Assembly (NCBI GenBank): GCA_022763045.1 | Contig: JALEGI010000002.1 | Span: forward strand, 21,368-85,367 | DNA length: 64,000 nucleotides | Reading direction: 5' to 3' | Source of the DNA: Simkaniaceae bacterium | GTDB taxonomy: Bacteria > Chlamydiota > Chlamydiia > Chlamydiales > JACRBE01 | Shown here: positions 3,900-55,630 of the stretch, piece after piece | How positions within the stretch are numbered: position 1 is the first letter of the stretch | How the letters are laid out: each line of letters begins with the position of its first letter | Position numbers and translations under genes: made by a program | The notes under the pieces: generated by a model | Seen by the model: only the letters and a program-made list of their open reading frames with translations | Told to the model about the DNA's origin: nothing | Database searches by the model: none

Positions 3900-4652
3900 A
3901 TGCAACTTCTTGCTCTAAACGGATCAAAAAAAATCTGGCCTTACGAGGCAAATCAGGGTCAAGAATACACCTGCCCTGACTGTGGATATCCGGTAAAATT
4001 GCGTTGGGGAATCGTGCGACGCCCCCATTTTTATCACGTTTATGAATCACCTAAGTGCAAAAAGCTCAGTACCAAGCTCCACCGCTCGATTCAATATTAC
4101 ATCTATCGCCTACTTCATTTTCAAACGGTTGAAATTGAAAAATCGTATCCCGAGATTGACCGCATCGCCGACATCTTTTGGGCCGAAAAAAAAATTATTT
4201 TTGAAGTCCAATGCACGATGATTCCGTTCAAAGAAATGCAAGACAGGGTGCGCGATTACGCCTCACTAGGACTGCAAGTCGTCTGGCTTTTGCACGCAAA
4301 CAACCCCTGGCTCACCTCAGCAACATGGGATGATTTGAAAAAACTTCCCCATTTTTACACTAACCTTGATTTGCGAGATAATGGCGTCTTTTTCGATCAA
4401 ATTTGGCTCGAGGGGCACGGCAAATCCGCGCCCTATGTTGTCGAGCTTGACGCACCGCTACCAATGAGACACTTCCCCATGCCTGTTCCCGACCTTCTCA
4501 TAGAGCGCACCCGCAATCGCAGATACTACTTTCAGGGAGATTATCTCCATTTTTGGACAAAACACCCCTACATGATTCCAAAGCGCGAGCCCCGCAGAAA
4601 AAATTGGTACGTCAAATGGATTGACAACCTCATCAAAAAACACAATTTTTGA
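3900..4652 (+). CDS. CoiA-like competence-family protein (putative PD-(D/E)xK nuclease)
   Basis: 250 aa. The N-terminal YTCPDCGYPVKLRWGIVRRPHFYHVYESPKC matches the CoiA signature (Y-T-C-P-x-C-G ... L-R-x-G ... H-F-x-H ... C). A D...E-x-Q block (IADIFW...IIFEVQC) follows. Confidence 0.6.
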   Translation: MQLLALNGSKKIWPYEANQGQEYTCPDCGYPVKLRWGIVRRPHFYHVYESPKCKKLSTKLHRSIQYYIYRLLHFQTVEIEKSYPEIDRIADIFWAEKKIIFEVQCTMIPFKEMQDRVRDYASLGLQVVWLLHANNPWLTSATWDDLKKLPHFYTNLDLRDNGVFFDQIWLEGHGKSAPYVVELDAPLPMRHFPMPVPDLLIERTRNRRYYFQGDYLHFWTKHPYMIPKREPRRKNWYVKWIDNLIKKHNF

Positions 4653-4659
4653 GTGAAAA

Positions 4660-4711
4660 TTCCTGGCTTTACAGAGAGAAAGCATTAGCTTGTAAAGCGG
4701 CTTTACAAGCT
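4660..4711 (+). repeat. A-B repeat unit: module A TTCCTGGCTTTACAGAGAGAAAG plus perfect palindrome AGCTTGTAAAGC-G-GCTTTACAAGCT
   Basis: Fills the whole 57-nt gap between the convergent CoiA-like gene (stop 4650-4652) and the membrane protein gene (stop 4710-4712). The palindrome has 12-nt arms with one central base. Same unit at 5645, 25751 and 27782, and reversed at 37547 and 55566. Confidence 0.9.
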
Positions 4712-5156
4712 AAATATATCCCATTCGATGAACATATTCGCGAAGCCAACGGAAATAGAAAAAGACCCCTAAAGCAAGAACAAAGTGAATCAAATTCTGA
4801 AAAGGGAAGTTTTTTTGCATCGCATTTGTTTTGGGGCTGAAACCGCTATACCATACAGGCCAAGAGCCCGCTTGCCAATGAGGTAGCATTGCTTCAGCCG
4901 CAATCATATTGGGAAAGGTAGGTCTTTTGAACTTATTTACGCCTCGATATTCCTTGCCATCAACGTTGAAAATATAATTTGCTATGAAAAAATACTGCGA
5001 TTCGTCCTTGCCCTCGATAGTCCAATGCACACGCGTAGGATGAGTCTTTCGGGTTAATTGCAGGTACTTAAAAAGATCAATTGATAGAATTGCTCCCGTC
5101 CAAATCAGCGCTCCAATTGTCAAAGCAGTGATGCCGAGCCAAATATTTTTTAACAT
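4710..5156 (-). CDS. Hypothetical membrane protein (two TM helices flanking a soluble domain)
   Basis: The track ORF is 4710..5210. I prefer the ATG at 5156 (MLKNIWLGITAL...) because GGAG lies 5 nt upstream. Hydrophobic helices at both ends. Confidence 0.5.
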   Translation of the reverse strand: MLKNIWLGITALTIGALIWTGAILSIDLFKYLQLTRKTHPTRVHWTIEGKDESQYFFIANYIFNVDGKEYRGVNKFKRPTFPNMIAAEAMLPHWQAGSWPVWYSGFSPKTNAMQKNFPFQNLIHFVLALGVFFYFRWLREYVHRMGYI

Positions 5157-5242
5157 TTTTACTCCAACTCTATAAAGGGCATTTACAGATTTGATCCAAA
5201 ATGGTATCATTTCTTCAAATTTTTTAAGCCCTACGGAGTATC

Positions 5243-5533
5243 ATGGCTGAAGCAGGAAAAGGTGACAACAAAAAGAAGCGCCCAAAGCGCCCAACTGCCC
5301 TAAAACGCAAGATCCAAGACGATAAAAAGTACTTGAGAAACCGCATCTTCAAGTCTCGTGTGAAGACAGCAATTCGCTCATTCCAGGAGTCTGTGACGGA
5401 AAAGAACGAAGACAAAATCAAAGCTTGTTTAGCAGCAGTTTATTCTCTTATGGATAAGGGAGTGAAGCGCGGCATCTACAAGAAAAACAAAGCTTCTCGT
5501 ACAAAGTCTCGCCTAACAGCTACTTCCAAGTAA
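5243..5533 (+). CDS. rpsT: 30S ribosomal protein S20
   Basis: 96 aa, very basic. ALKRKIQDDKKYLRNRIFKSRVKTAIR and C-terminal KNKASRTKSRL are typical of S20. Confidence 0.9.
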   Translation: MAEAGKGDNKKKRPKRPTALKRKIQDDKKYLRNRIFKSRVKTAIRSFQESVTEKNEDKIKACLAAVYSLMDKGVKRGIYKKNKASRTKSRLTATSK

Positions 5534-5541
5534 TTTCTTAC

Positions 5542-5590
5542 ATGGCCATCCCTCTTTCTAAAGAGATCCAAGATGGCCATCGTATTTTCA
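5542..5590 (+). terminator. Possible terminator hairpin downstream of rpsT
   Basis: ATGGCCATC (5542-5550) pairs with GATGGCCAT (5572-5580). An inner CTCTTT/AAAGAG stem lies between them, and CGTATTTTC follows. The T-run is short. Confidence 0.35.
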
Positions 5591-5644
5591 ATCACACAAA
5601 TTTTATTGCACACTTAAGTTGCAACCACTCCCCTACACCTTTTT

Positions 5645-5695
5645 TTCTGGCTTTACAGAGAGAGAAAGTTAGCTTGTAAAGCGGCTTTACAAGCT
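5645..5695 (+). repeat. A-B repeat unit (TTCTGGCTTTACAGAGAGAGAAAG + AGCTTGTAAAGCGGCTTTACAAGCT)
   Basis: Located between convergent rpsT and recD. The last bases of the palindrome overlap the recD stop codon (TAG, 5694-5696 on the minus strand). Confidence 0.9.
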
Positions 5696-7166
5696 ACGAG
5701 TTAAAGCGAGAAATGAGGTTGCTTTCACGATCGCCATGGGACGTGAGGCACGCTGCGAGGATCTCACGTGTAGAATTAATGGTAAGCGAGTGGCGACAGC
5801 GTGTGACGGCGGTGTAAAGCAGCTCACGACCAAAGCGCTCTGAGCCTTCGGGTAGTATTAGCTCTACTTCGTCAAATTCACTTCCCTGGCTCTTGTGAAC
5901 AGTGAGGGCGTAGGCGTATTCGTAAGCGGGTAGGATAGCCTCAGCGAGAGGCTCGCGCCCTGGGAAGTGCGCTTTTCCATTTAGGAGGGTGCCCATTTCA
6001 CCGTTATAGAGGTTAAGGCTGGGGTCGGAGCGTGTGATGAGGATGGGGATTGCGAAGGTGTCGGCTTGTTTGGCAAAGTAGTTGTAGAGGGTGGAATTGA
6101 TGGCATCTGAGCCTTGCAGGCCACGCTTGAGGCCGCAGAGGATGCGGTAGCGGCTAAAATCGACGTTGGGGCTCTGCGATAGGGGAAATTTTTCTGGCTT
6201 TACAGAGAGAGAATCTAGCGAATGGTAGGTGAAATGGGCACTGCCTGCATTGAGGATTTCGAGGACGTTTTGCGCGTGCCCGAGGCGTATGTTTTCAGCA
6301 AGATTGAGGATGTCCTGTCGATCGGAGCGAAGGCACTCTTCTAGGTGGACGTGGGGTATGGCGGGGATTTGGCACATCTGAGAGAAGAGAGTACCCGCAT
6401 CAACGGGGGGAATTTGATCGGGGTCGCCCATGAGTATTACGCGGGTGCCCTCTTGGATTTGCGAGAAAAGCGCGGCGAAGATGCGGGCGTCAATCATGGA
6501 GCACTCGTCTACGATGAGCAGGTCGGCGGCGATTTTCGGGGGATACTCTTTATGAAGCTGGAGCAGCGCATGGAGTGTGCTGGTGGTGACGTCTCGGTTG
6601 ATGGCTTTTGCCAGGTGCTGAGCCGCTTTTCCGGTGGGGGCGGCAAGGGTGATTTTGGCATTTGCGGGTAGCGCTTCGGCAATGTGTTTGGCAACAAAGG
6701 TTTTTCCGCGGCCAGGGCCTCCTGTGAGGATCATAAAAGGCGATTGCATAGCAAGGTGGAGCGCTTTTTCTTGTAGAGCGTTGAGAGCGGGATCAACTGT
6801 ATAGTTTTTTTCTGGATGTGCTGAGAATGAGAGGAGCCTTTTGAGCCCGCTGAGGGTGCGCGTTTCGTAGATCCAGTTCTTTTGTAGATAGTAGTGAGAG
6901 CCGAACTTACCGATAGGCTTGGCAAAGGTCTCAGTGGTGGCGGTGAGCTCTTGCATACAGCTCGGGTTGAAGATTCCTTGGCTATCGTGATAGCAGAGGT
7001 GTCCATGGCGTGAATGGGCAAAGAGTTTTTCGATCAGTGATCTGAGTGTGGGCTCATCGGTGTGAATTTTTCTGCAGATCATCTCTGCGAATGCTTCTTC
7101 AAGTAACGGCATAAATTGCAGGCTCCCGTAGAAAGACATAATACACACCTGCAAAGATCTGTTCAA
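5694..7166 (-). CDS. recD: Exodeoxyribonuclease V alpha subunit RecD (SF1 helicase)
   Basis: Walker A GGPGRGKT, Walker B LLIVDECSMID, motif VI TVHKSQGSEF. The start is uncertain; ATG at 7112 (MPLLEEAF...) would reduce the overlap with recB to 14 nt. Confidence 0.85.
   Translation of the reverse strand: MNRSLQVCIMSFYGSLQFMPLLEEAFAEMICRKIHTDEPTLRSLIEKLFAHSRHGHLCYHDSQGIFNPSCMQELTATTETFAKPIGKFGSHYYLQKNWIYETRTLSGLKRLLSFSAHPEKNYTVDPALNALQEKALHLAMQSPFMILTGGPGRGKTFVAKHIAEALPANAKITLAAPTGKAAQHLAKAINRDVTTSTLHALLQLHKEYPPKIAADLLIVDECSMIDARIFAALFSQIQEGTRVILMGDPDQIPPVDAGTLFSQMCQIPAIPHVHLEECLRSDRQDILNLAENIRLGHAQNVLEILNAGSAHFTYHSLDSLSVKPEKFPLSQSPNVDFSRYRILCGLKRGLQGSDAINSTLYNYFAKQADTFAIPILITRSDPSLNLYNGEMGTLLNGKAHFPGREPLAEAILPAYEYAYALTVHKSQGSEFDEVELILPEGSERFGRELLYTAVTRCRHSLTINSTREILAACLTSHGDRESNLISRFNS
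6192..6213 (+). repeat. Solo module A inside recD (22 nt identical to the spacer form)
   Basis: TTCTGGCTTTACAGAGAGAGAA. Read antisense by recD as D-S-L-S-V-K-P-E. Confidence 0.9.
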
Positions 7167-24860: not shown

Positions 24861-25711
24861 TGCGTGATCCTTTCGATAAAATTTTTAATTGCCAGGTATT
24901 TTTCTCGGTGAAAGCCAGGAGATTTTAAATTCCAGTTCGACCCCGCTCGATAATGCAAAAAGTGGCGATCTGCCATCCACTCTGAATCCTTCGGTTGAGC
25001 TGCAATGAGTGCATTTTCTTCCTCTGTAAAGCTAGAATTTTGGGGTGTCTGACTGACATACAAAAGATTGAGGTTATTCACAGCAATATCGCGGTGAGAT
25101 GCAAGATAATCGTGAGTGTGTCCACCTGAGTCGACATTGACCTCTTTGATTGTCCCACAGTTGAAGTTAATCGAGCGATGGTTTGGTAGACGTGAAAAAT
25201 CAAGCATTGCAAGACCTATCCACAAATAGTCCACTCTTTCTCCACTAGGACTCGTGCGATATTGCATGACTGAGGCTATCGGATGCTCGGCTAAATATTC
25301 GTGAAAATTGATCGGCTTTACAAGGAACAGGTCTGAATCAAGTAGCACAACAATTCCATTATGATTAAATCCCAAACGATTGAGAGAAAACTGCACGACA
25401 TTGCAATTGCGCACTGAGGGTGCATTGATATCCTCACGAGCAAGCCGATGCAGATAGGGCATCGCGTGAATGGGTTGAGGAATGCGCACACATTTGACAC
25501 CCTCTTTATGGCAAACCGCTTCAATTTCCCTGCGCATTTTTGTATTTACCGCATCATTGAAGACCACAAATTCAAAGTCATCTTCGACAAAATGCTTCAA
25601 TGTCTTGTGCTGCATTTCGATAAATTCGGGACGATTGTAGGCATACGTGTAGATAAGAACTTTCTCAGCAAAAAGCGCAAGAGGTAGAAATAAGATGAGG
25701 AAAAATTTCAT
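24857..25711 (-). CDS. Signal-anchored GT-A-like glycosyltransferase (putative, DxD-type)
   Basis: MKFFLILFLPLALFA, then KVLIYTYAYNRPEF and VVLLDSDLF (DxD-like). Overlaps the downstream gene by 4 nt. Confidence 0.5.
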   Translation of the reverse strand: MKFFLILFLPLALFAEKVLIYTYAYNRPEFIEMQHKTLKHFVEDDFEFVVFNDAVNTKMRREIEAVCHKEGVKCVRIPQPIHAMPYLHRLAREDINAPSVRNCNVVQFSLNRLGFNHNGIVVLLDSDLFLVKPINFHEYLAEHPIASVMQYRTSPSGERVDYLWIGLAMLDFSRLPNHRSINFNCGTIKEVNVDSGGHTHDYLASHRDIAVNNLNLLYVSQTPQNSSFTEEENALIAAQPKDSEWMADRHFLHYRAGSNWNLKSPGFHREKYLAIKNFIERITQ

Positions 25712-25750
25712 GATTCAATCCTTGGTTTTTAAGGAAAAAACTATGCATTT

Positions 25751-25855
25751 TTCTGGCTTTACAGAGAAGAAAAATTAGCTTGTAAAGCCGCTTTACAAGT
25801 GCTTAGATTCCCCAAAAACCACACCCTTAAAAAACGGCTTGCCGCTTTACAAGCT
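25751..25855 (+). repeat. A-B unit plus a second variant palindrome arm
   Basis: TTCTGGCTTTACAGAGAAGAAAAA, then AGCTTGTAAAGCCGCTTTACAAGT, then AAAAACCACACCCTTAAAAAACGGCTTGCCGCTTTACAAGCT. The last arm contains the ung stop codon. Confidence 0.9.
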
Positions 25856-26524
25856 CCAGTTTATCGGGGATTTACCCCATTTCTCCAAAGCTTGATTGAT
25901 TTTAGAGAAGTGCCGGCATCCAAAAAACTTTGTTGCTGAAAAGGGCGATGGATGTGCCGATTCCAGAATAAGGTGGGGATGGTTTGGGGTTGCGAAAATG
26001 CGCTCACATTTTTCGCGAGCTGAGCGGCCCCATAGAACAAATACAACTGGATCACTGCGTTCAAACAGAAGCTGGACCACAGCATCGGTAAACTGCTCCC
26101 ATCCCCTGCCGTAATGCGACTTGGGCTCGCCACGACGTACTGTGAGTGTTGCGTTGAGCATGAGCACCCCCTGTCCAGCCCAGCTTTCCAGGTTGCCATG
26201 TGTGGGAATCTCCATGCCAATATCGCTGCGCAGCTCCTTGTAGATATTGACAAGCGATGGTGGGGGCTTAATTCCTGGCTTTACAGAGAAGCAAAGTCCG
26301 TGCGCTTGGCCCGGTCCGTGGTAGGGATCTTGGCCAACAATCACGACTTTCACCGCATCAAAAGGAGTCAAACGCAAGGCGTTGAAGACCTCATCTTCTG
26401 GTGGGTAGATCGTCGCTCCAGAGCGCTTTTCTGAATCAAGGAAACTTTTTAGATCTGAGATGTAGGGCTTAGAGAGCTCTGTTTTGAGGGCCTCGTGCCA
26501 CGTCTTTTCTAGGGTGAGTGTCAT
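25847..26524 (-). CDS. ung: Uracil-DNA glycosylase (family 1)
   Basis: GQDPYHGPGQAHGLCFSV and HPSPFSA motifs. ATG at 26524 (MTLTLEKTWHE...) is preferred over the track start at 26569. Confidence 0.9.
   Translation of the reverse strand: MTLTLEKTWHEALKTELSKPYISDLKSFLDSEKRSGATIYPPEDEVFNALRLTPFDAVKVVIVGQDPYHGPGQAHGLCFSVKPGIKPPPSLVNIYKELRSDIGMEIPTHGNLESWAGQGVLMLNATLTVRRGEPKSHYGRGWEQFTDAVVQLLFERSDPVVFVLWGRSAREKCERIFATPNHPHLILESAHPSPFSATKFFGCRHFSKINQALEKWGKSPINWSL
26274..26292 (+). repeat. Module A copy inside ung, coinciding with the conserved FSV(K/R)PG motif
   Basis: CCTGGCTTTACAGAGAAGC, read antisense as C-F-S-V-K-P-G. Confidence 0.8.
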
Positions 26525-26598
26525 ATTGGGACAGGAGAATAGCACAATGCTTTTTTTCTTTAAAAACATTTGAATTGTGTATATACTCTATGGCTCAT

Positions 26599-26673
26599 CT
26601 GGGTGTGGCGCAGCTTGGCTAGCGCACTAGCATGGGGTGCTAGGGGTCGGAGGTTCGAATCCTCTCACCCAGA
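26599..26673 (+). tRNA. tRNA-Pro (anticodon GGG)
   Basis: 75-nt cloverleaf folded by hand. Acceptor CTGGGTG/CACCCAG; D arm GCGC-AGCTTGGCTA-GCGC; anticodon stem CTAGC/GCTAG with loop ATGGGGT; T arm GGAGG-TTCGAAT-CCTCT; discriminator A. Confidence 0.85.
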
Positions 26674-26690
26674 TTTCTTTTGGAGCGCTT

Positions 26691-26864
26691 ATGCAATCTG
26701 ATCCACAATATTATGCTTGGTTAGGTTGGGCGATCTCTTGGATCGTTTTACCCCTTGTTTCTGCGCAATCTTTGATTCGATACAGAGGAAAAAAGAAGCG
26801 TATTGACCTTTTTATTTCTATTTTTTGTTTAGTTCTTTTCATTTGGAAAACAATGAAAATTTAA
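26691..26864 (+). CDS. Possible small membrane protein (57 aa)
   Basis: ATG at 26691 with GGAG 5 nt upstream; two hydrophobic helices. The longer track ORF (26637) would overlap tRNA-Pro. Confidence 0.3.
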   Translation: MQSDPQYYAWLGWAISWIVLPLVSAQSLIRYRGKKKRIDLFISIFCLVLFIWKTMKI

Positions 26865-26869
26865 CTTGT

Positions 26870-27184
26870 TCAAGATTCTGTATCTTCATGAAAAAAATCC
26901 CTAGCAAATCTCGGTGGCGGACTGGGCGGACCGTGAATTTTTTGTATTTCTTTATTTTTTTTATCGACTTCTAGCAAGCTTTTTCCTATGTCGTTTCCAC
27001 CACTAATTACAAGACCGGTACCCATAGCATAAGTAACAGGAGTAGGTATTATACAACATAATGCACCTGTTAAAATTTTTATCCCTCCAATAATCATTTC
27101 AGCTGGAATATCTTGGTTCTTTCTTTTTCTCTTACCATTATTAGTTAAAATAATTGGCCTTTTTTTTAATTGCACTATAGTCAC
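26870..27184 (-). CDS. Hypothetical small protein (glycine-zipper TM segment, basic N-terminus) in the AT-rich islet
   Basis: 104-aa ORF containing GGIKILTGALCCIIPTPVTYAMGTGLVISGG. No family recognised. Confidence 0.35.
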   Translation of the reverse strand: MTIVQLKKRPIILTNNGKRKRKNQDIPAEMIIGGIKILTGALCCIIPTPVTYAMGTGLVISGGNDIGKSLLEVDKKNKEIQKIHGPPSPPPRFARDFFHEDTES

Positions 27185-27560
27185 ATCGATTTAACAAAGC
27201 GCGTTCCCTTTTGAAAATTTTTTCACAAATTAATTCTCTTACTTCAAAAGGAATCTTTGTCCCATTTTCTGATATTACCTGATACACATACTGACTTAGA
27301 TAAGAGAGGTCAGGCATGTAATAGCCTTTACCTAAAAAGTAACACCTTACTTCATATAAAAAATCAACTAACTCATCAACTGTTACCGAATCGTCAATGT
27401 TTTCAAAATAACTGTCTATCCAACCGATTTCTTCGACTTTTATAGGTTCAAAATTTACATCTGAAACAGGATCCGCATTCAAAAATAGACAACCCATTAA
27501 GAATACAATCTTGAAATACTTGCTAAGGCAACAGCAACCATCGTTAAATATATAAAACAT
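27141..27560 (-). CDS. Hypothetical acidic protein in the AT-rich islet
   Basis: 139-aa ORF with a possible lipobox-like FLMGC near the N-terminus. No family recognised. Confidence 0.35.
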   Translation of the reverse strand: MFYIFNDGCCCLSKYFKIVFLMGCLFLNADPVSDVNFEPIKVEEIGWIDSYFENIDDSVTVDELVDFLYEVRCYFLGKGYYMPDLSYLSQYVYQVISENGTKIPFEVRELICEKIFKRERALLNRCDYSAIKKKANYFN

Positions 27561-27688
27561 AAAAACTTTTTTCCCTGAGAAAAGCTTTTCGGCAAATTAA
27601 ACAATACAATAGTAAATATTAATCCCGAACCAAGTATGGTTAGTAAGTAGATGCATGTTTCGACTAAAAAAATTGAAAAATCACTCAT
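27497..27688 (-). CDS. Hypothetical small membrane protein in the AT-rich islet
   Basis: 63-aa ORF with two hydrophobic segments. Confidence 0.3.
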   Translation of the reverse strand: MSDFSIFLVETCIYLLTILGSGLIFTIVLFNLPKSFSQGKKFLCFIYLTMVAVALASISRLYS

Positions 27689-27781
27689 CTCTATTATTCC
27701 TTTTTTTCATCCTATTGATATAGGAGTATTAATATTTTATGACAAATAAATTAACACCCTAGCAAAATTTTCTATGAAAAT

Positions 27782-27831
27782 TTCTGGCTTTACATAGAGA
27801 AAATACAGCTTGTAAAGCGGCTTTACAAGCT
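27782..27831 (+). repeat. A-B repeat unit (module A has one mismatch: GGCTTTACATAGAGA)
   Basis: TTCTGGCTTTACATAGAGAAAAT, then the perfect AGCTTGTAAAGCGGCTTTACAAGCT (27807-27831). The palindrome arm supplies the last two codons and the TAA stop of the ankyrin gene. Confidence 0.9.
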
Positions 27832-29046
27832 CAACTTAGGTTTAAGTTTCCAGTTGTCAAGATTATCGGGATTCGCCCCATTCTCAAGCAGCAATTCGAT
27901 CATTTGAGAGCTTTTTGCCAAGTAAAGCGGCGTTTGCTGATTGCAATCGATCGCATTAATTTCTGCTCCATATGAGAGCAGTAGCTTCACCACCTCAATA
28001 CTGTCCAATTCAACTGCCCTTGCTAGTGCGCGAATCCCTGTTCTATCTGGGAGATTGACTTCGATTCCCGAATTGAGAAGGCTTTGAATGCGCTCTATAT
28101 CTAAGCTTTTAATAGCCTCTGTTAAGATGAGCTGATCGGGGTGCTCCCTCACAGCATACCAAGCAGCCCCTAAAAGCCCCGCCCTTCTTGGGCCTGTGTA
28201 GACTGGAACACCTATTTGAAGTTGCTTCAAAGCCCTTTCTAAGCGTCTGCCGTGCCTTTCGGTATGCCCTCCGGTAAACACAATGGAACTGGGTGTATCC
28301 CATGGTGGTGGCAATTTTTTTAGCTTTGGAAAAAGATAGTGATCGAAATATTTTTTCCACCTTGATGCAAATGTTAAAAATATGGTGTCATCGATAACCC
28401 CATTGTTTTGTGCAACAAGTTGATCAAATCCATTCCGACTACTACAGCAGAAATAAGAAAAAATGTGTTGGTCGACAACCGTTGTCTTCCAAATTTCTAG
28501 TCCAAAAATGCAGTTTAGGTCGGAAATGCGCTTGATACTCCCCTTTTGTTCGGCATACCCTATTCCAACTCCAGTTCCGATCGAGAAATTAAAAATAGGC
28601 CCTTTGGGCAAATCTAACTCCTCCATTGAGGCAACTAAGTGGGCAGCTCCATCATCAATGCAGCGCATTTGCGAGGGAGGGATGGCAAAAAGTGATGCGA
28701 TGTTTGGGTTCGTGCGCTCTCTTGCACATAGCTTATTTAGACCTGCCAATGAAAAAGCAAAGTGATAGCCAGCTGCTATCTCTTCATCGATATCAACTTC
28801 CATTGTATTGAGGAGTCTTTCGCGTATCCATTGCGAAACATGCATGTTATCGGGACACTTGCCAAGAGATGAGGGCTCTTGGACCCACTCCATGCGATGC
28901 GCGCCCTCTTCATAAGCTAGTAGAGCCGTTTTTAAACCACCTCCCCCTAGATCAAAGGCCCGTATATATTGTGGCTCTGTAAAAGCTACCAATGGAACTA
29001 ACAGGAATAAATAGATGTATCTCATAAGCGATGTCGATAATAACAA
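27823..29046 (-). CDS. Signal-peptide protein: ROK/ASKHA sugar-kinase-like domain fused to C-terminal ankyrin repeats
   Basis: N-terminal MRYIYLFLLVPLVAF. Kinase-like blocks FDLGGGGLKTA, DDGAAH, IGTGVGIG and AGLLGAAW. C-terminal ankyrin consensus (TGIRALARAVELDSIEVVKLLLSYGAEINAID..QTPLYLA...IELLLENGANPD). Confidence 0.7.
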   Translation of the reverse strand: MLLSTSLMRYIYLFLLVPLVAFTEPQYIRAFDLGGGGLKTALLAYEEGAHRMEWVQEPSSLGKCPDNMHVSQWIRERLLNTMEVDIDEEIAAGYHFAFSLAGLNKLCARERTNPNIASLFAIPPSQMRCIDDGAAHLVASMEELDLPKGPIFNFSIGTGVGIGYAEQKGSIKRISDLNCIFGLEIWKTTVVDQHIFSYFCCSSRNGFDQLVAQNNGVIDDTIFLTFASRWKKYFDHYLFPKLKKLPPPWDTPSSIVFTGGHTERHGRRLERALKQLQIGVPVYTGPRRAGLLGAAWYAVREHPDQLILTEAIKSLDIERIQSLLNSGIEVNLPDRTGIRALARAVELDSIEVVKLLLSYGAEINAIDCNQQTPLYLAKSSQMIELLLENGANPDNLDNWKLKPKLSL

Positions 29047-29197
29047 GTGAAAAGTTATTTGTGAACGATTGGGTTGTGGGAAACTCTGTCAGTAAGCTGT
29101 TTAAGAAGTGTCCAGAATCTTGTTCAAACTTTTTTCTGTTTAAAAAAGGCTGTTTTTTGACACACTTTGCACAAGTTATCAACAGGCTATTTTTTCT

Positions 29198-29887
29198 ATG
29201 AACAATTCCGAGTTTATAAACACTTCCACAACACCTAAAGAAGAAGAAAAACATATAAATATCTCTCTTATATCTTATACCAGCTTCTTTGATCTTAACA
29301 GCTTTGAACACATTGAACTCTTCCACAATGATCCTGTTTGGTCTGCTCTCAAAACTTTGAAGGAATATGTCGATAAGCTAGATTTTTCTATTGAAGTGGA
29401 GACTGAAAGTGCCTATTTGGTGAACCGTGAGAAGATTTCTATTGGAAAAGGCTCTGTGATTGAACCAGGCGCTTATATTGAAGGCCCTTGTGTCATTGGA
29501 AAAAATTGTGTTGTTCGACATGGCGCTTATGTGAGACCGTATACGTTGACTGGTGATGGATGCACAATTGGCCACTCTTCAGAGGTCAAGCATTCGATTC
29601 TACTCAATGGCTGTGCTCTGCCGCATTTTAATTATGTTGGAGACTCAATCATCGGCTCGAACGTGAATTTAGGCGCAGGCTTGATTTGCGCCAATCTTCG
29701 ACTTGACAAAGGCGAGGTCTTTGTTCATGTTAGTGGGCAAAAAATTCCAACAGGCCTTTCAAAGATGGGGGCCATTGTCGGCGATGGTTCGAGTTTGGGC
29801 TGTAATTGTGTTACCAATCCAGGGGCACTTTTCAAAAAAGGCTCTCTCGCCTCCCCTTGTCGCAGCTTACCGGGAAAAATAAAGTGA
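29198..29887 (+). CDS. Hexapeptide-repeat (left-handed beta-helix) transferase, GlmU C-terminal-domain-like
   Basis: Repeated [LIV]-G-x-x-x-x hexads (IGKGSVIEPGAYIEGPCVIGKNCVVRHGAYV...IGSNVNLGAG). Confidence 0.7.
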   Translation: MNNSEFINTSTTPKEEEKHINISLISYTSFFDLNSFEHIELFHNDPVWSALKTLKEYVDKLDFSIEVETESAYLVNREKISIGKGSVIEPGAYIEGPCVIGKNCVVRHGAYVRPYTLTGDGCTIGHSSEVKHSILLNGCALPHFNYVGDSIIGSNVNLGAGLICANLRLDKGEVFVHVSGQKIPTGLSKMGAIVGDGSSLGCNCVTNPGALFKKGSLASPCRSLPGKIK

Positions 29888-34223: not shown

Positions 34224-35279
34224 ATGGGACAATTGAAGCAACTCGGTAAATTTGCATTTCTATTTTCCCTCCTAACTTCCAGTACGTTATGCGATGAACC
34301 AACCTTAAAACAGTTCGTCGTACCCAATGCAATGGATACCCTAGGAGTGGTCACAGCTCCCGCACGTCCAGAAATTGAGGGTGATCAGTACTATATTGAC
34401 TTAGAGCCTCTACTTTGGCACGCGCGAGTTGGGGGCACAGCATTTGCTTTCACAAACAACCGCGCAACAGTCGGTCTACCAACAAAAGGGGAGACCAAAG
34501 CCATCAGTATGGGGTGGGACTTTGGCTTTCGCGTAGGACTTGGCTACTGTCTTCCCTACGATGGGTGGGACCTAGACGCCCACTACCTCTACTATCGCAC
34601 AACAGATAGCAACAACACCAATACAACGCGATTAAGCACGCTCACGCCGCTTAAAGGCACACTACTCATCAATCGTAACGTTGATGAAGCGCGCTCGAAT
34701 TTAAAATTAACACTCAGCTCCATCGATCTCATGCTCGGTCGTGAGTTTTTTGTGAGTCCTTTTCTCTCTGTAAAGCCAGCGATTGGATTGCAAACTTCCT
34801 GGCTGAATCTCAATCAGCACACGGCCTATTCTGGAGGCCCTTTTCTCGACGTGAACTCCTATTACGTTGACGATGAAAGTAAGTTTTGGGGCATAGGACC
34901 CAAGCTAAGCGGCAGCTCTCAGTGGTTTATTGGAAACGGCTTTTCGCTCTTCGGTTCACTCGGCTTTGCCATGCAATATGGTAAGTACGACATCTACTAC
35001 CAAGAAGATCTCAGCAACACAATTACAGATTCGCTATTCATTCATGAGCAGCGCCACCAATTCGATCCCGAAATCGATTTCGGACTTGGACTTGGCTACG
35101 GCACATATGTGAACGAACACAAAGCCTTCTTTGAAGTGAGCCTTTGGTATGAAGGGGAGTTTTGGATTAGCCAAAACCAAATGATCCAAGTCTTTCAAAC
35201 AAATGCCTCACGTTTCAATAATGTCTCTGAAGATGTGAGCATGCACGGTGCCACGCTCAAAGTACGCGTTAACTTCTAA
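34224..35279 (+). CDS. MOMP-like outer-membrane porin, paralogue
   Basis: Signal peptide. Shares blocks with 33006..34121 (GWDL..Y.Y.R, LELGR/LMLGREFFVS, KFWG.GP). Ends ...LKVRVNF. Confidence 0.65.
   Translation: MGQLKQLGKFAFLFSLLTSSTLCDEPTLKQFVVPNAMDTLGVVTAPARPEIEGDQYYIDLEPLLWHARVGGTAFAFTNNRATVGLPTKGETKAISMGWDFGFRVGLGYCLPYDGWDLDAHYLYYRTTDSNNTNTTRLSTLTPLKGTLLINRNVDEARSNLKLTLSSIDLMLGREFFVSPFLSVKPAIGLQTSWLNLNQHTAYSGGPFLDVNSYYVDDESKFWGIGPKLSGSSQWFIGNGFSLFGSLGFAMQYGKYDIYYQEDLSNTITDSLFIHEQRHQFDPEIDFGLGLGYGTYVNEHKAFFEVSLWYEGEFWISQNQMIQVFQTNASRFNNVSEDVSMHGATLKVRVNF
34763..34782 (-). repeat. Solo module A inside the second MOMP-like gene (antisense)
   Basis: TTCTCTCTGTAAAGCCAGCG, read as F-L-S-V-K-P-A. 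Confidence 0.85.
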
Positions 35280-35338: not shown

Positions 35339-35650
35339 ATGGATTTAGAAGCAATTTTAGAGCAGGCTAGAAGAGTAGTTGAAGAGGTTGAAACAATCGG
35401 TGACGAAGTTTTGATTGATGTACGCGAAGAGAATGAATGGGAAAAGGGGCATATCGAAGGTGCGATTCACATTCCTCGCGGACTTTTAGAGTTTCAAATT
35501 GAAAAGCACGTCAAAGACAAATCGCAGCCCATCTTACTGTACTGTGCAGGTGGTGCACGCTCTTTGGTAGCAGCCCTTACCCTCAAAAATCTTGGCTTTA
35601 CAGAGGTGAAGTCTTTGAAACATGGCATCAAAAACCAAAAATTAGTCTAG
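35339..35650 (+). CDS. Single-domain rhodanese (sulfurtransferase)
   Basis: Active-site loop CAGGARS and LIDVREENEW. ATG at 35339 is preferred (the track start is 35297). A one-mismatch module A copy at 35591-35608 encodes L-G-F-T-E-V. Confidence 0.8.
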   Translation: MDLEAILEQARRVVEEVETIGDEVLIDVREENEWEKGHIEGAIHIPRGLLEFQIEKHVKDKSQPILLYCAGGARSLVAALTLKNLGFTEVKSLKHGIKNQKLV

Positions 35651-35930
35651 CTTGTAAAGCGGCAAGCCGTTTTGCATAATTCAAAACACGACAAACTAAT
35701 TATGATGAATTTTAATATTAATTTGAAAATACATTGTATAAGAACCTGATTTAATCAGGTCGAAGAGCGCCGTCAGGGCGCTCAGGGGGCCCCAGATTTG
35801 CGCTATCGCGACGAACCAAGCGTATAGATAAATACGTGTGAGGAGCGATAGGGTGAAGATGGGGTGCCATGATGCGGCCAAAAGGCAGTGTTGCATAATT
35901 GCAACATTGCCAAGCGGCTTTACAAGCTAG
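35648..35930. repeat. Split palindrome: the two arms of the family palindrome separated by about 253 nt of structured sequence
   Basis: Left arm AGCTTGTAAAGCGG (35649-35662), right arm GGCTTTACAAGCT (35916-35928). A 10-nt direct repeat TTGCATAATT (35672-35681 and 35891-35900) brackets a 209-nt core. The core has perfect hairpins at 35744-35760 and 35765-35783. Confidence 0.75.
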
Positions 35931-35931
35931 T

Positions 35932-36630
35932 TTAAGATTTGGGTAAGGACTTGGGTATCTTCTCTAAATCGGTTGGATTTAGCGTCATTGCCAATCTGTT
36001 GTAAAATTGCTCATATCCCGAGTTGCATGCTTGAGAGATCGTATGAGAGTCATTAAATCCGCTTCCATTCCACGAAACGCTCTCTTTTAATGCGGTATTC
36101 ACTGCGTAGATCACACTCCATTCATACTGGGTGTTTGATGGGGTGATTTTTTCATGGTTTTTCAAGTAATTTGATAAGGGTGTTGAAATCAGCCCGGTCA
36201 TCTGTTTAAAGGAGTCTTGAAGCTCTGGTAAGACATTTTCTGCGCAGTCAAATTTCTCCGGTGCTTGGAAAAGGTGCCACATTTGCTCTCCAAAAGTGAG
36301 TGTAAATTCAAACGGAGTTTGGAGGGCCTTGGGGTTTTGTGTTATTGTGGCAAGCAGTGTGCTAGCTAAACCTTTTAAAATAACATCCCCGGGGTAGCTA
36401 CCATCAAGAGGAGGGGAAGTTTGTGGCTTTAGGAGACTAAAGATTCCAGAAACTGTAGGTTCTAATGGGCCTGCTGCAGAAATAATTCTTTGAGCCACTT
36501 GTTCTAGGGATTCTGTCTTTGTTGCAGCTGGCCAACTGATGTAATCACTCAGCGCGTTTTCCATATTCTCCAGGTTTTGTGAGGAGAAAGAGTGCTCAAA
36601 ACTGTTAGGAGCGTTTGGGTTTACTTCCAT
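35932..36630 (-). CDS. Hypothetical protein, member 2 of a tandem paralogue pair
   Basis: Start chosen at MEVNPNAP (36630) by alignment with the upstream paralogue. Shared blocks ALSDY(V/I)xW, LPEL, TIS(D/Q)ACN(K/S)GY. Confidence 0.5.
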   Translation of the reverse strand: MEVNPNAPNSFEHSFSSQNLENMENALSDYISWPAATKTESLEQVAQRIISAAGPLEPTVSGIFSLLKPQTSPPLDGSYPGDVILKGLASTLLATITQNPKALQTPFEFTLTFGEQMWHLFQAPEKFDCAENVLPELQDSFKQMTGLISTPLSNYLKNHEKITPSNTQYEWSVIYAVNTALKESVSWNGSGFNDSHTISQACNSGYEQFYNRLAMTLNPTDLEKIPKSLPKS

Positions 36631-37465: not shown

Positions 37466-37597
37466 TAGCGAACAAAGTGGCAAGCTGTTTTGCAAGTGTG
37501 TGGTTTCAGCAAATTTAGTCAGAGTGGTTAATTTGCAAAAGCAAAACGCTTGTAAAGCCGCTTTACAAGCTAGCGACTTGTCTCTGTAAAGCCAGGG
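37466..37597. repeat. Mosaic repeat cluster: variant arm, module D (reversed), palindrome B, reversed module A
   Basis: GTGGCAAGCTGTTTTGCAAGTG; TGGTTTCAGCAAATTTAGTCAGAGTGGTTAA (37501-37531 region); CGCTTGTAAAGCCGCTTTACAAGCTA (37547-37572); TTGTCTCTGTAAAGCCAGGG (37578-37597), which ends 4 nt from the acyP stop. Confidence 0.85.
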
Positions 37598-49974: not shown

Positions 49975-50092
49975 GCTTGTAAAACGGAAAAAATTCCTGG
50001 CTTTACAGAGAGAAAAGAGTAGCTTGTAAAGCGGCTTTACAGACATTTAAGAAATGATTAAGAAAAAGGTTTTGTCTCTGTAAAGCCAAGAA
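49975..50092. repeat. Long-form mosaic repeat bounded by inverted module A copies (MITE-like)
   Basis: Module A forward at 49994-50016. Palindrome variant at 50021-50043. CATTTAAGAAATGATTAAGA follows. Module A reversed at 50072-50092. It lies in the divergent greA/nqrA spacer. Confidence 0.9.
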
Positions 50093-54557: not shown

Positions 54558-55559
54558 ATGCTGCAAACAGAACAAATCTTTCTTACACACCGTCCACGGC
54601 GCAATCGTAAAATGCCTGCAATCCGAGAGCTCATTGCAGAATCACATCTTAAACCAAGTGATTTGGTCGTTCCTTTTTTCCTAATTGAAGGCGATAATCA
54701 ACAAGAAGAAATTCCCGAACTTCCTGGTGTCTATCGTTACACAGTTGATCTAGTTATTGAAGAAGCAGCAGCTTTGCATCGCGATGGTATTCAAGCAATT
54801 GCACTTTTTCCTGTACTCGATGCAGAAGTGCGCGACGAGGAGGCAAGCGCCTCACGCGATCCAGAGGGGCTGATCCCCTGGGCTGTGCGCTTGCTGAAAA
54901 AAGAGCTTCCAACACTCACCATCATTGCCGATGTCGCTCTCGATCCCTACACATCTCATGGCCACGACGGTATTGTTGATGATCAGATGCGCATTGATAA
55001 CGACCGTACCCTCGCCGCTCTTGGAGAGCAGGCTCTTGTGCAGGCGGAAGCAGGCGTCGATATTATTGCCCCAAGCGATATGATGGATGGACGCGTGAAA
55101 TACTTGCGTGAAATCCTCGACGACGCTGGCTTTACAGAGACAACAATTTTATCCTACTGCGCAAAATACGCCTCATCGCTTTACAACCCCTTCCGCAGCG
55201 CAATCAACACAGAGCTCTCTTTTGGGGACAAACGCACCTACCAAATGGATCCGGCAAATGTAAAAGAGGCGCTTTTAGAAGCAAAGTTTGATGAGGCTGA
55301 AGGAGCGGATATGCTCCTTGTAAAGCCAGCGAGTTTGTATCTCGATGTTGTGGCCAAAATGGCTGAGAGCACCTCGCTTCCAGTAGGAGCCTATCATGTG
55401 AGTGGAGAGTATGCCATGGTGATGGCGGCAGATAGAGCGGGCCTACTTGATGCGTCTGCAGTCTTTTATGAAACGCTACTTTCAATCAAAAGAGCAGGAG
55501 CGCGTTTTATTTTCACCTACGCTGCAAACCACGTATTGCCAATCTTAACAAACTCTTAA
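54558..55559 (+). CDS. hemB: Porphobilinogen synthase (delta-aminolevulinate dehydratase), aspartate-rich (non-zinc) type
   Basis: RPRRNR, DVALDPYTSHGHDG (no Cys triad), Schiff-base lysine in LLVKPA, YHVSGEYAM. ATG at 54558 is preferred. Confidence 0.92.
   Translation: MLQTEQIFLTHRPRRNRKMPAIRELIAESHLKPSDLVVPFFLIEGDNQQEEIPELPGVYRYTVDLVIEEAAALHRDGIQAIALFPVLDAEVRDEEASASRDPEGLIPWAVRLLKKELPTLTIIADVALDPYTSHGHDGIVDDQMRIDNDRTLAALGEQALVQAEAGVDIIAPSDMMDGRVKYLREILDDAGFTETTILSYCAKYASSLYNPFRSAINTELSFGDKRTYQMDPANVKEALLEAKFDEAEGADMLLVKPASLYLDVVAKMAESTSLPVGAYHVSGEYAMVMAADRAGLLDASAVFYETLLSIKRAGARFIFTYAANHVLPILTNS
55126..55143 (+). repeat. Solo module A inside hemB (sense)
   Basis: GCTGGCTTTACAGAGACA, read as A-G-F-T-E-T. 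Confidence 0.8.
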
Positions 55560-55630
55560 ATGTCTGTAAAGCCGCTTTACAAGCTAACTTTTTGTCTCTG
55601 TAAAGCCAGAAATTTTTCCGCTTTACAGGG
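55541..55630 (-). repeat. Long-form mosaic repeat, reversed copy, overlapping the last codons and stop of hemB
   Basis: The reverse complement reads CCCTGTAAAGCGGAAAAATTTCTGGCTTTACAGAGACAAAAAGTTAGCTTGTAAAGCGGCTTTACAGACATTTAAGAGTTTGTTAAGA. It is colinear with 15459-15547 and 49975-50067. Confidence 0.85.

Follow-up and report, generated by a model that had tools for sequence, protein, structure and literature searches.

Short DNA words repeated along a replicon are known from several bacterial systems. KorB, a ParB-family protein of the IncP-1 plasmid RK2 whose ParA partner is IncC, has the operator OB (TTTAGCSGCTAAA), and RacA with its ram sites is an example of an origin-centred array. Other repeated words are the repetitive extragenic palindromes (REP) and bacterial interspersed mosaic elements (BIME) of enterobacteria and pseudomonads, as well as the DNA uptake sequences (DUS) of Neisseria and the uptake signal sequences (USS) of Pasteurellaceae. 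Here we describe a repeated element from an uncultured Simkaniaceae bacterium, found in a 64,000-nt stretch of its genome (hereafter the window; G000:C20:21368-85367) and then followed through the whole assembly (21 contigs, 1.80 Mb, 45.9% GC, 95.5% complete, contamination 0.07%). It consists of a palindrome, P, and a shorter module, A, which are often joined in one cassette. We consider it somewhat probable that this is a binding-site cassette belonging to a centromere-like array of the origin domain, read probably by the ParB/Noc-like protein UPF0137 and amplified in this genome in a REP-like manner.

In many chlamydial families, the present one among them, chromosome organisation and segregation proceed without a canonical ParB. 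A conserved, origin-centred word beside a ParA–UPF0137 operon provides a concrete cis element together with a candidate protein. New here are an array of asymmetric half-sites, with a conserved, syntenic and origin-centred density in several families, and its approximately tenfold amplification as a spacer cassette. A full-text literature search, using the words themselves as well as chlamydial REP or parS, returned no paper describing the palindrome or the arrays.

Half-sites, palindromes and copies inside genes

The palindrome has the form AGCTTGTAAAGC-N-GCTTTACAAGCT in the window, where nine matches with up to three mismatches were found (4687–4711, 5671–5695, 15505–15529, 23397–23421, 25777–25801, 27807–27831, 37547–37571, 50021–50045 and 55561–55585), compared with none in 100 shuffles. 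Module A, TTCTGGCTTTACAGAGAGA, has 23 matches at the same tolerance where 0.01 would be expected, among them plus-strand matches at 4661, 5645, 25751 and 27782 and minus-strand matches at 37579 and 55593. An earlier note on this DNA, made from its letters alone, had described the two modules together as a 52-nt unit and proposed a genome-wide family. The unit is present at every position listed there, and the whole-genome scan yields about 100 copies, mostly intergenic: P is found 101 times with up to three mismatches and 91 times as the exact 15-bp core GTAAAGC-S-GCTTTAC, while module A is found 98 times with up to two mismatches, 59 times as an exact 13-mer and 92 times as the 10-mer TGGCTTTACA.

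The two modules share a single word. Module A carries one half-site, CTG-GCTTTACA-GAGAGA, and P carries two in inverted orientation, TGTAAAGC-S-GCTTTACA. The earlier note had seen the 9-mer common to A and the right arm of P and suggested that A competes for pairing with the left arm. The predicted fold is always the P hairpin and never an A:left-arm duplex, and a shared protein half-site explains the common 9-mer better than competing RNA pairing. One DNA word thus has two forms, the half-site in A and the inverted pair in P, and we propose that a protein reads both as double-stranded DNA.

Module A is also present inside genes, which the earlier note had missed. Genome-wide, about 39 solo copies of module A lie within open reading frames (ORFs), and at least five copies of P lie within genes. 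All eight sense copies of A are in phase 0, where GGC TTT ACA GAG encodes (L)GFTE, and seven of eight antisense copies are in phase 1, encoding (L)SVKP. On contigs C20 (which contains the window) and C18, the exact motif accounts for 8 of the 10 occurrences of GFTE, where codon usage predicts 4%, and for 10 of the 12 occurrences of SVKP, where it predicts 0.3%; both peptides are themselves enriched on these contigs. The P core within genes encodes VK(R/P)LY, for example in PurA-like and GspE-like ORFs, names that come from reading the peptides with no tool behind them.

In the window, antisense copies of A are located in recD (6192–6210, plus strand; encoding LSVKPEKF), recB (8758–8776, plus; LSVKPG), recC (10727–10745, plus; LSLSVKPE), the uracil-DNA glycosylase (UDG) gene ung (26273–26291, plus; over the conserved HGLCFSVKPG motif) and an outer-membrane-protein gene (34763–34781, minus; FLSVKPA). 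Sense copies are located in an 810-aa ORF at 15551–17983 (15893–15911, minus; ILGFTER), the adenylosuccinate-lyase gene purB (22006–22024, plus; ILGFTET), an NlpC/P60 gene (46428–46446, plus; SGFTER) and hemB (55124–55142, plus; AGFTET, at which orthologues read GFSDV, GYENT or GFINT).

Alignments with orthologues from five related genomes reveal no indel at the motif in HemB, PurB, UDG, RecD or RecC; in UDG the motif overlies the conserved segment HGLCFSV(K)PG. Since the copies keep a fixed frame and contain no insertion relative to orthologues, they arose in place by substitution. Judging from these alignments, the force behind them acts on DNA, and the signal overrides protein sequence: residues of HemB and PurB are altered, and the catalytic motif of UDG is overwritten.

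Origin-centred distribution and the candidate reader

Copies of the word are strongly regional. The share located on contigs C20 and C18, together 15.4% of the genome, is 71% for the 10-mers (binomial p = 3e-32), 78% for the 13-mers and 45% for the P cores (p = 2e-11). The cumulative GC skew of C20 has its minimum at about 50 kb, corresponding to 27–28 kb in the window, and gene orientation flips there. The replication origin probably lies in the interval 25000–29400 of the window, where both the skew minimum and the lowest GC content (40.6%) are found; 7 of the 16 near-matches to the DnaA box in the window fall within it, a mild clustering. The same interval also holds a tRNA gene (26599–26673) and a 220-nt AT-rich spacer (27560–27780). 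The density of module A is 6–7 per 10 kb beside the skew switch, 1–3 in the rest of C20 and C18 and about 0.1 on most other contigs.

Two other accounts of this regional pattern were rejected. Module A shows no change of strand at the skew switch, which makes the signal non-polar, unlike Chi or the FtsK-orienting polar sequences (KOPS), and rules out replichore polarity. A chimeric bin or a foreign origin of C20 and C18 is at odds with their ordinary GC content, GC content at third codon positions and tetranucleotide distances, and with the contamination of 0.07%. A search for region-specific words on the other contigs found none.

The word extends well beyond this genome. The exact 15-bp P core occurs in 67 of 201 Chlamydiales genomes, while reversed-pattern controls all gave 0. 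The present genome has the maximum (91 cores), followed by G199 (45), G173 (35), G185 (21), G004 (17) and G031 (13), and most carriers have 1–5. Neither 40 relatives nor two public collections of genome and metagenome contigs contain the exact cassette. This had first suggested a private family, a view overturned when a k-mer scan found the shorter core in syntenic contigs of G004. In this genome of a different genus (35–60% protein identity), TGGCTTTACA occurs 22 times in a 43-kb contig syntenic to the window, the palindromes have the form ATGTAAAGC-S-GCTTTACAT, and most of the palindromes and 10-mers lie inside long ORFs. Motif-rich contigs of G004 correspond to C20, C18 and C1 here, and motif-poor ones to C10 and C17. 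The individual G004 sites are not orthologous to those described above; density is conserved while sites turn over.

The 10-mer is enriched in several families, with clusters of 150–250 kb in G031, G112, G090 and G199. The clusters of G031, G112 and G199 surround a GC-skew minimum and consist of copies within long ORFs; in G090 most copies are on one contig. The high 10-mer count of G092 was rejected as an array, being due to 75-nt tandem coding repeats: on G092:C1 (e.g., 939314–940370) TGGCTTTACA recurs at exact 75-nt spacing at several loci, within unrelated tandem repeats of 25 codons. As far as such comparisons can tell, the word predates this genome, being a signal conserved at the level of DNA across the order Chlamydiales.

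A candidate reader is encoded about 6 kb from the skew switch, where a parA-like gene (19878–20639, plus strand) overlaps a gene of the UPF0137/CT583 family (20632–21360, plus). A canonical ParB_N domain was absent from this genome and its four family relatives, and is present in about half of the order. Of 200 genomes in the order, 194 have UPF0137; 14 control genomes have none. In at least eight genomes from seven families (G031, G017, G009, G049, G088, G117, G111 and G024), a P core lies 13–40 nt upstream of the UPF0137 gene, which is where a ParB-like partner would be expected to have its operator or centromere. In an AlphaFold2 model the window protein is all-helical (mean predicted local distance difference test score, pLDDT, of 81), and its only meaningful match in the PDB is Noc (7nfu_B), with a probability of 1.00 and a template modelling (TM) score of 0.39–0.44 over 135 columns.

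Some further observations concern this protein family. All four family relatives contain UPF0137 matches, 2–3 each, and the present genome encodes a second, divergent UPF0137/CT583 paralogue (G000:C17:189507-190199, 166 bits) with no adjacent ParA gene and no motif copies nearby. Over residues 141–214 of the window protein, the UPF0137 family profile has weak matches to histone H4 (E = 0.004–0.05), which are probably compositional; the family otherwise has no sequence relatives in the PDB. Two comparisons across genomes were set aside. The presence of UPF0137 is uninformative as a test against the motif, the protein being nearly universal, and the absence of ParB shows no clean complementarity with motif abundance, as G112 and G068 have both.

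The distribution and the site upstream of the UPF0137 gene also bear on a DNA-uptake signal, in which a word favoured by a competence receptor would form inverted pairs doubling as terminators. Such a signal would suit the presence of copies within and between genes in fixed frames, both solitary and in inverted pairs, with flanks that vary between lineages like dialects, and here a CoiA-like competence gene and recBCD adjoin copies. However, the overall density is only about 1 per 20 kb, with 71% of the 10-mers in 15% of the genome, and the distribution is strongly regional rather than even in five genomes. In addition, the way in which P recurs shortly before the UPF0137 gene suggests an operator or centromere. 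Given the regional distribution and the site at the UPF0137 operon, we consider an uptake signal very improbable.

Under the binding-site reading that we prefer, arrays of the word would mark the origin-proximal part of the chromosome, with UPF0137/CT583 and its ParA ATPase as the most likely reader. By analogy with parS/ParB, with Noc and its binding sites (NBS), or with OB/KorB, dimers would occupy P, and binding to A would be weaker or monomeric. The number of sites in this genome has been raised about tenfold, to some 90 of each form, by two routes. The first is in-place substitution in genes, where the motif dictates GFTE, SVKP and VK(R/P)LY; the second would be copying of the A+P cassette and of its approximately 190-nt derivative into spacers, resembling REP/BIME. 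A cellular binding site captured and multiplied like REP would also matter for the annotation of "REP-like" repeats elsewhere. We further speculate, tentatively and with more doubt than belief, that environmental chlamydiae have an origin macrodomain of about 200–350 kb, marked by arrays of GCTTTACA half-sites and palindromes that CT583/UPF0137 would read as a cryptic ParB/Noc analogue. In this one lineage the site would have become a self-propagating REP-like A+P cassette, a mobile centromere site able to spread partition or organisation sites anew along the chromosome.

Several observations weigh against this interpretation. P is only 2.9-fold enriched in C20 and C18 and is present on most contigs, and, the contigs being unordered, "origin-centred" in this genome refers to one contig together with synteny. 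Within the same family, G001 and G002 contain no exact P cores and G003 only two. There is no palindrome at the parA–UPF0137 junction in this genome. Noc is a weak fold match (E = 0.15, all other hits having a probability of at most 0.15), and searching the PDB with the UPF0137 sequence profile finds no ParB, only noise (S100, histone H4). Nor does the presence of UPF0137 predict the array, since the protein is near-universal while the motif is abundant in a minority of genomes; that it binds the word is something we infer from sequence. Finally, about 90 near-perfect copies with a conserved spacer resemble the recent spread of a repeat more than an old array of sites.

Cassettes, spacers and termination

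In the genome, 41 copies of A and P form a stereotyped cassette in which A is followed by an A-rich spacer of 8–11 nt, TAGC and P. They share one architecture, and their cores are more conserved than their spacers. What follows P takes one of three forms. It may be a symmetric AGCTA or the body of a longer element, or else a "D" tail, GACATTTAAGA...TGTAAAG, in which the half-site is present for a third time, inverted. The modules are combined as a mosaic, with arrangements including AP, APD, PAP, A-Q-body-P and A-P-body-Q. The longer element, of about 190 nt and with 13 full copies in two sequence variants, folds as a rod. As the basal stem of the rod consists of the P arms, the short P corresponds to this stem minus the insert.

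The two rod variants differ in the distal stem and have an inner hairpin, CCAATAGC-N4-GCTATTGG; copies are found, for example, at 23397–23612 of the window and near C1:63.6 kb, C18:32.1 kb, and C20:3.2 kb and 14.1 kb. Upstream of many A copies stands another recurrent module, GTCAAAAAA-N-GGC-N-AAAAATT (in reverse complement AATTTTTGGCNGTTTTTTGAC), by which A is linked to a second P where the arrangement is P-a-P (e.g., C1:63.8 kb, C18:32.2 kb and C20:3.3 kb).

This build invites comparison with a selfish palindrome of the REP/BIME type, a likeness to which the earlier note had drawn attention. The P hairpin would then be recognised, as single-stranded DNA, by a Y1 transposase (IS200/IS605) similar to the REP-associated tyrosine transposases (RAYT), or be spread by some other mobile mechanism, and A would be a functionless accessory. 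The likeness holds for the mosaic modules, the mostly intergenic position, the roughly 100 copies, the stable hairpin, the uniform cassettes and the longer derivative, and neither the 40 relatives nor the two public collections have the exact cassette. It fails in other respects. The absence of a RAYT gene from the window, already noted, extends to the entire 95.5%-complete genome, where PF01797 has no match although control genomes are matched. No flanking direct repeats or target-site duplications were seen in the 41 cassettes, the relatives being too distant for an empty-site comparison, and the cassette ends are not sharp, conservation fading gradually on both flanks, unlike in a miniature inverted-repeat transposable element (MITE). 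Moreover, the P core is conserved across many families instead of being private to the lineage, A and P occur in conserved genes without insertion, and A is centred on the origin here and in other genera. We therefore regard a purely selfish repeat as unlikely.

By ORF-based gene calls, a crude approximation, 86 of about 101 P copies are intergenic. P occurs in 26 of 125 convergent gaps, which is 2–3 times its frequency per gap elsewhere, and 14 copies are in divergent gaps. The earlier note had the unit specially filling convergent gaps, which did not survive the count: 9 of 40 cassettes are found there by the same gene calls, compared with the 21% of intergenic length that such gaps represent. 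The side of the cassette facing a gene 3′ end is A in 21 cases and P in 21, and in tandem gene contexts the sense of a terminator and its reverse are represented by 12 cassettes each.

A function in transcripts would make P a bidirectional terminator or 3′-end stabiliser and A an upstream A/U-tract or anti-terminator partner. As RNA, P is predicted to form a hairpin with a stem of 11–13 bp, the 3-nt loop that had been foreseen and a stability of about −13 to −18 kcal/mol. The earlier statement that no T-run follows it is right for the plus strand; the opposite strand, which reads P and then the reverse complement of A, has a T/C-rich tail (ACTTTCTCTC), and a terminator scan flags 4713–4685 and 5696–5670 as terminator-like. 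The preference per convergent gap also fits this function, as does the rpsT–recD gap of the relative G001, where an ordinary small hairpin and a T-run take the place of the cassette, and several stop codons overlap P flanks. The equal orientations (12 versus 12), the 14 copies in divergent gaps and the plus strand without a U-run speak against it, and so do words lying inside genes here, and mostly inside genes elsewhere, where termination would be harmful. As the words are mostly inside genes in other genomes, the terminator or hairpin effect is not the conserved function, and we rate a primarily transcript-level role as rather unlikely, a shade more so than the selfish repeat. Transcript hairpins in spacers, with possible 3′-end stabilisation or termination, may instead be a side effect of the binding-site cassette. 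At Rfam gathering thresholds, the only matches in the window are two tRNAs.

The individual copies in the window illustrate this range of forms. The gene context of the first two is as the earlier note gave it: a CoiA-like gene (3900–4652), a small membrane-like ORF (4710–5210), rpsT (5243–5533) and recD (5694–7166). The cassette at 4661–4711 (plus strand; A 4661–4679, P 4687–4711) lies between the CoiA-like gene and the small minus-strand ORF, whose stop codon overlaps the flank of P. The one at 5645–5695 (plus; A 5645–5663, P 5671–5695) lies between rpsT and recD, and the recD stop codon abuts P. At 15479–15549 (plus; A 15479–15497) the cassette carries a D tail, its P variant (15505–15529) ending in GACATTTAAGA. 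In the long rod-type variant at 23397–23612 (minus), the inner hairpin and some 130 nt of body separate A (23590–23608, minus) from P (23397–23421).

Near the skew switch, the cassette at 25751–25855 (plus; A 25751–25769, P 25777–25801) has a truncated long-element stump behind it, and the one at 27782–27831 (plus) stands beside the AT-rich spacer at the switch itself and overlaps the 3′ end of an ankyrin-repeat ORF (27823–29046). Further on, a reversed cassette at 37470–37597 (minus; P 37547–37571, A 37579–37597) has a partial long-element body to its left. An A-P-D-a unit occupies 49995–50091 (plus; A 49995–50013, P/D 50021–50045, reversed A 50073–50091), and a reversed cassette with a D tail at 55561–55611 (minus; P/D 55561–55585, A 55593–55611) is located between hemB and a thyX-like gene. 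In addition, a palindrome at 35650–35935 (plus) is split, with about 270 nt of another structured repeat between its left arm AGCTTGTAAAGCGGC and right arm GCGGCTTTACAAGCT. The repeat family that splits it, AACCTGATTTAATCAGGT ... GAAGAGCGCC ... CCCAGATTTGCGC, also abuts P on C9, C12, C18 and C20.

Comparison with known systems

The DUS of Neisseria and the USS of Pasteurellaceae resemble the present word in being 10–13 nt long, in their preferred gene frames, in inverted pairs forming hairpins downstream of genes and in dialect-like flanks. However, the overall density here is about 20 times lower, and the distribution is regional, not genome-wide. REP/BIME elements share with P and its cassettes the form of extragenic palindromes of 25–35 nt in about 100 copies, their mosaics and the frequent position at gene 3′ ends; they differ from the present family, which has no RAYT, a core found across families, in-gene copies without insertion and an origin-centred distribution.

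Closer parallels are offered by Noc–NBS of Bacillus subtilis and by parS/ParB. These systems too have short palindromes in tolerant stretches of genes, with tens of sites placed by chromosome domain, where sites turn over and density is conserved. In contrast to them, the half-site form described here (A, 15–17 nt) is as abundant as the palindrome, the sites have been amplified as a spacer cassette, and there is no canonical ParB.

KorB and its operator differ from the present system in that the latter is chromosomal, with tens to about 90 sites in addition to half-sites, and that UPF0137 has no detectable ParB_N. Nevertheless, both OB and GTAAAGCSGCTTTAC are odd-length palindromes with a central S and have the centre AGC-S-GCT in common. 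Both systems have about a dozen or more dispersed sites and a ParA partner, and in other chlamydiae, as with KorB, a site is located at the operon of the candidate reader itself.

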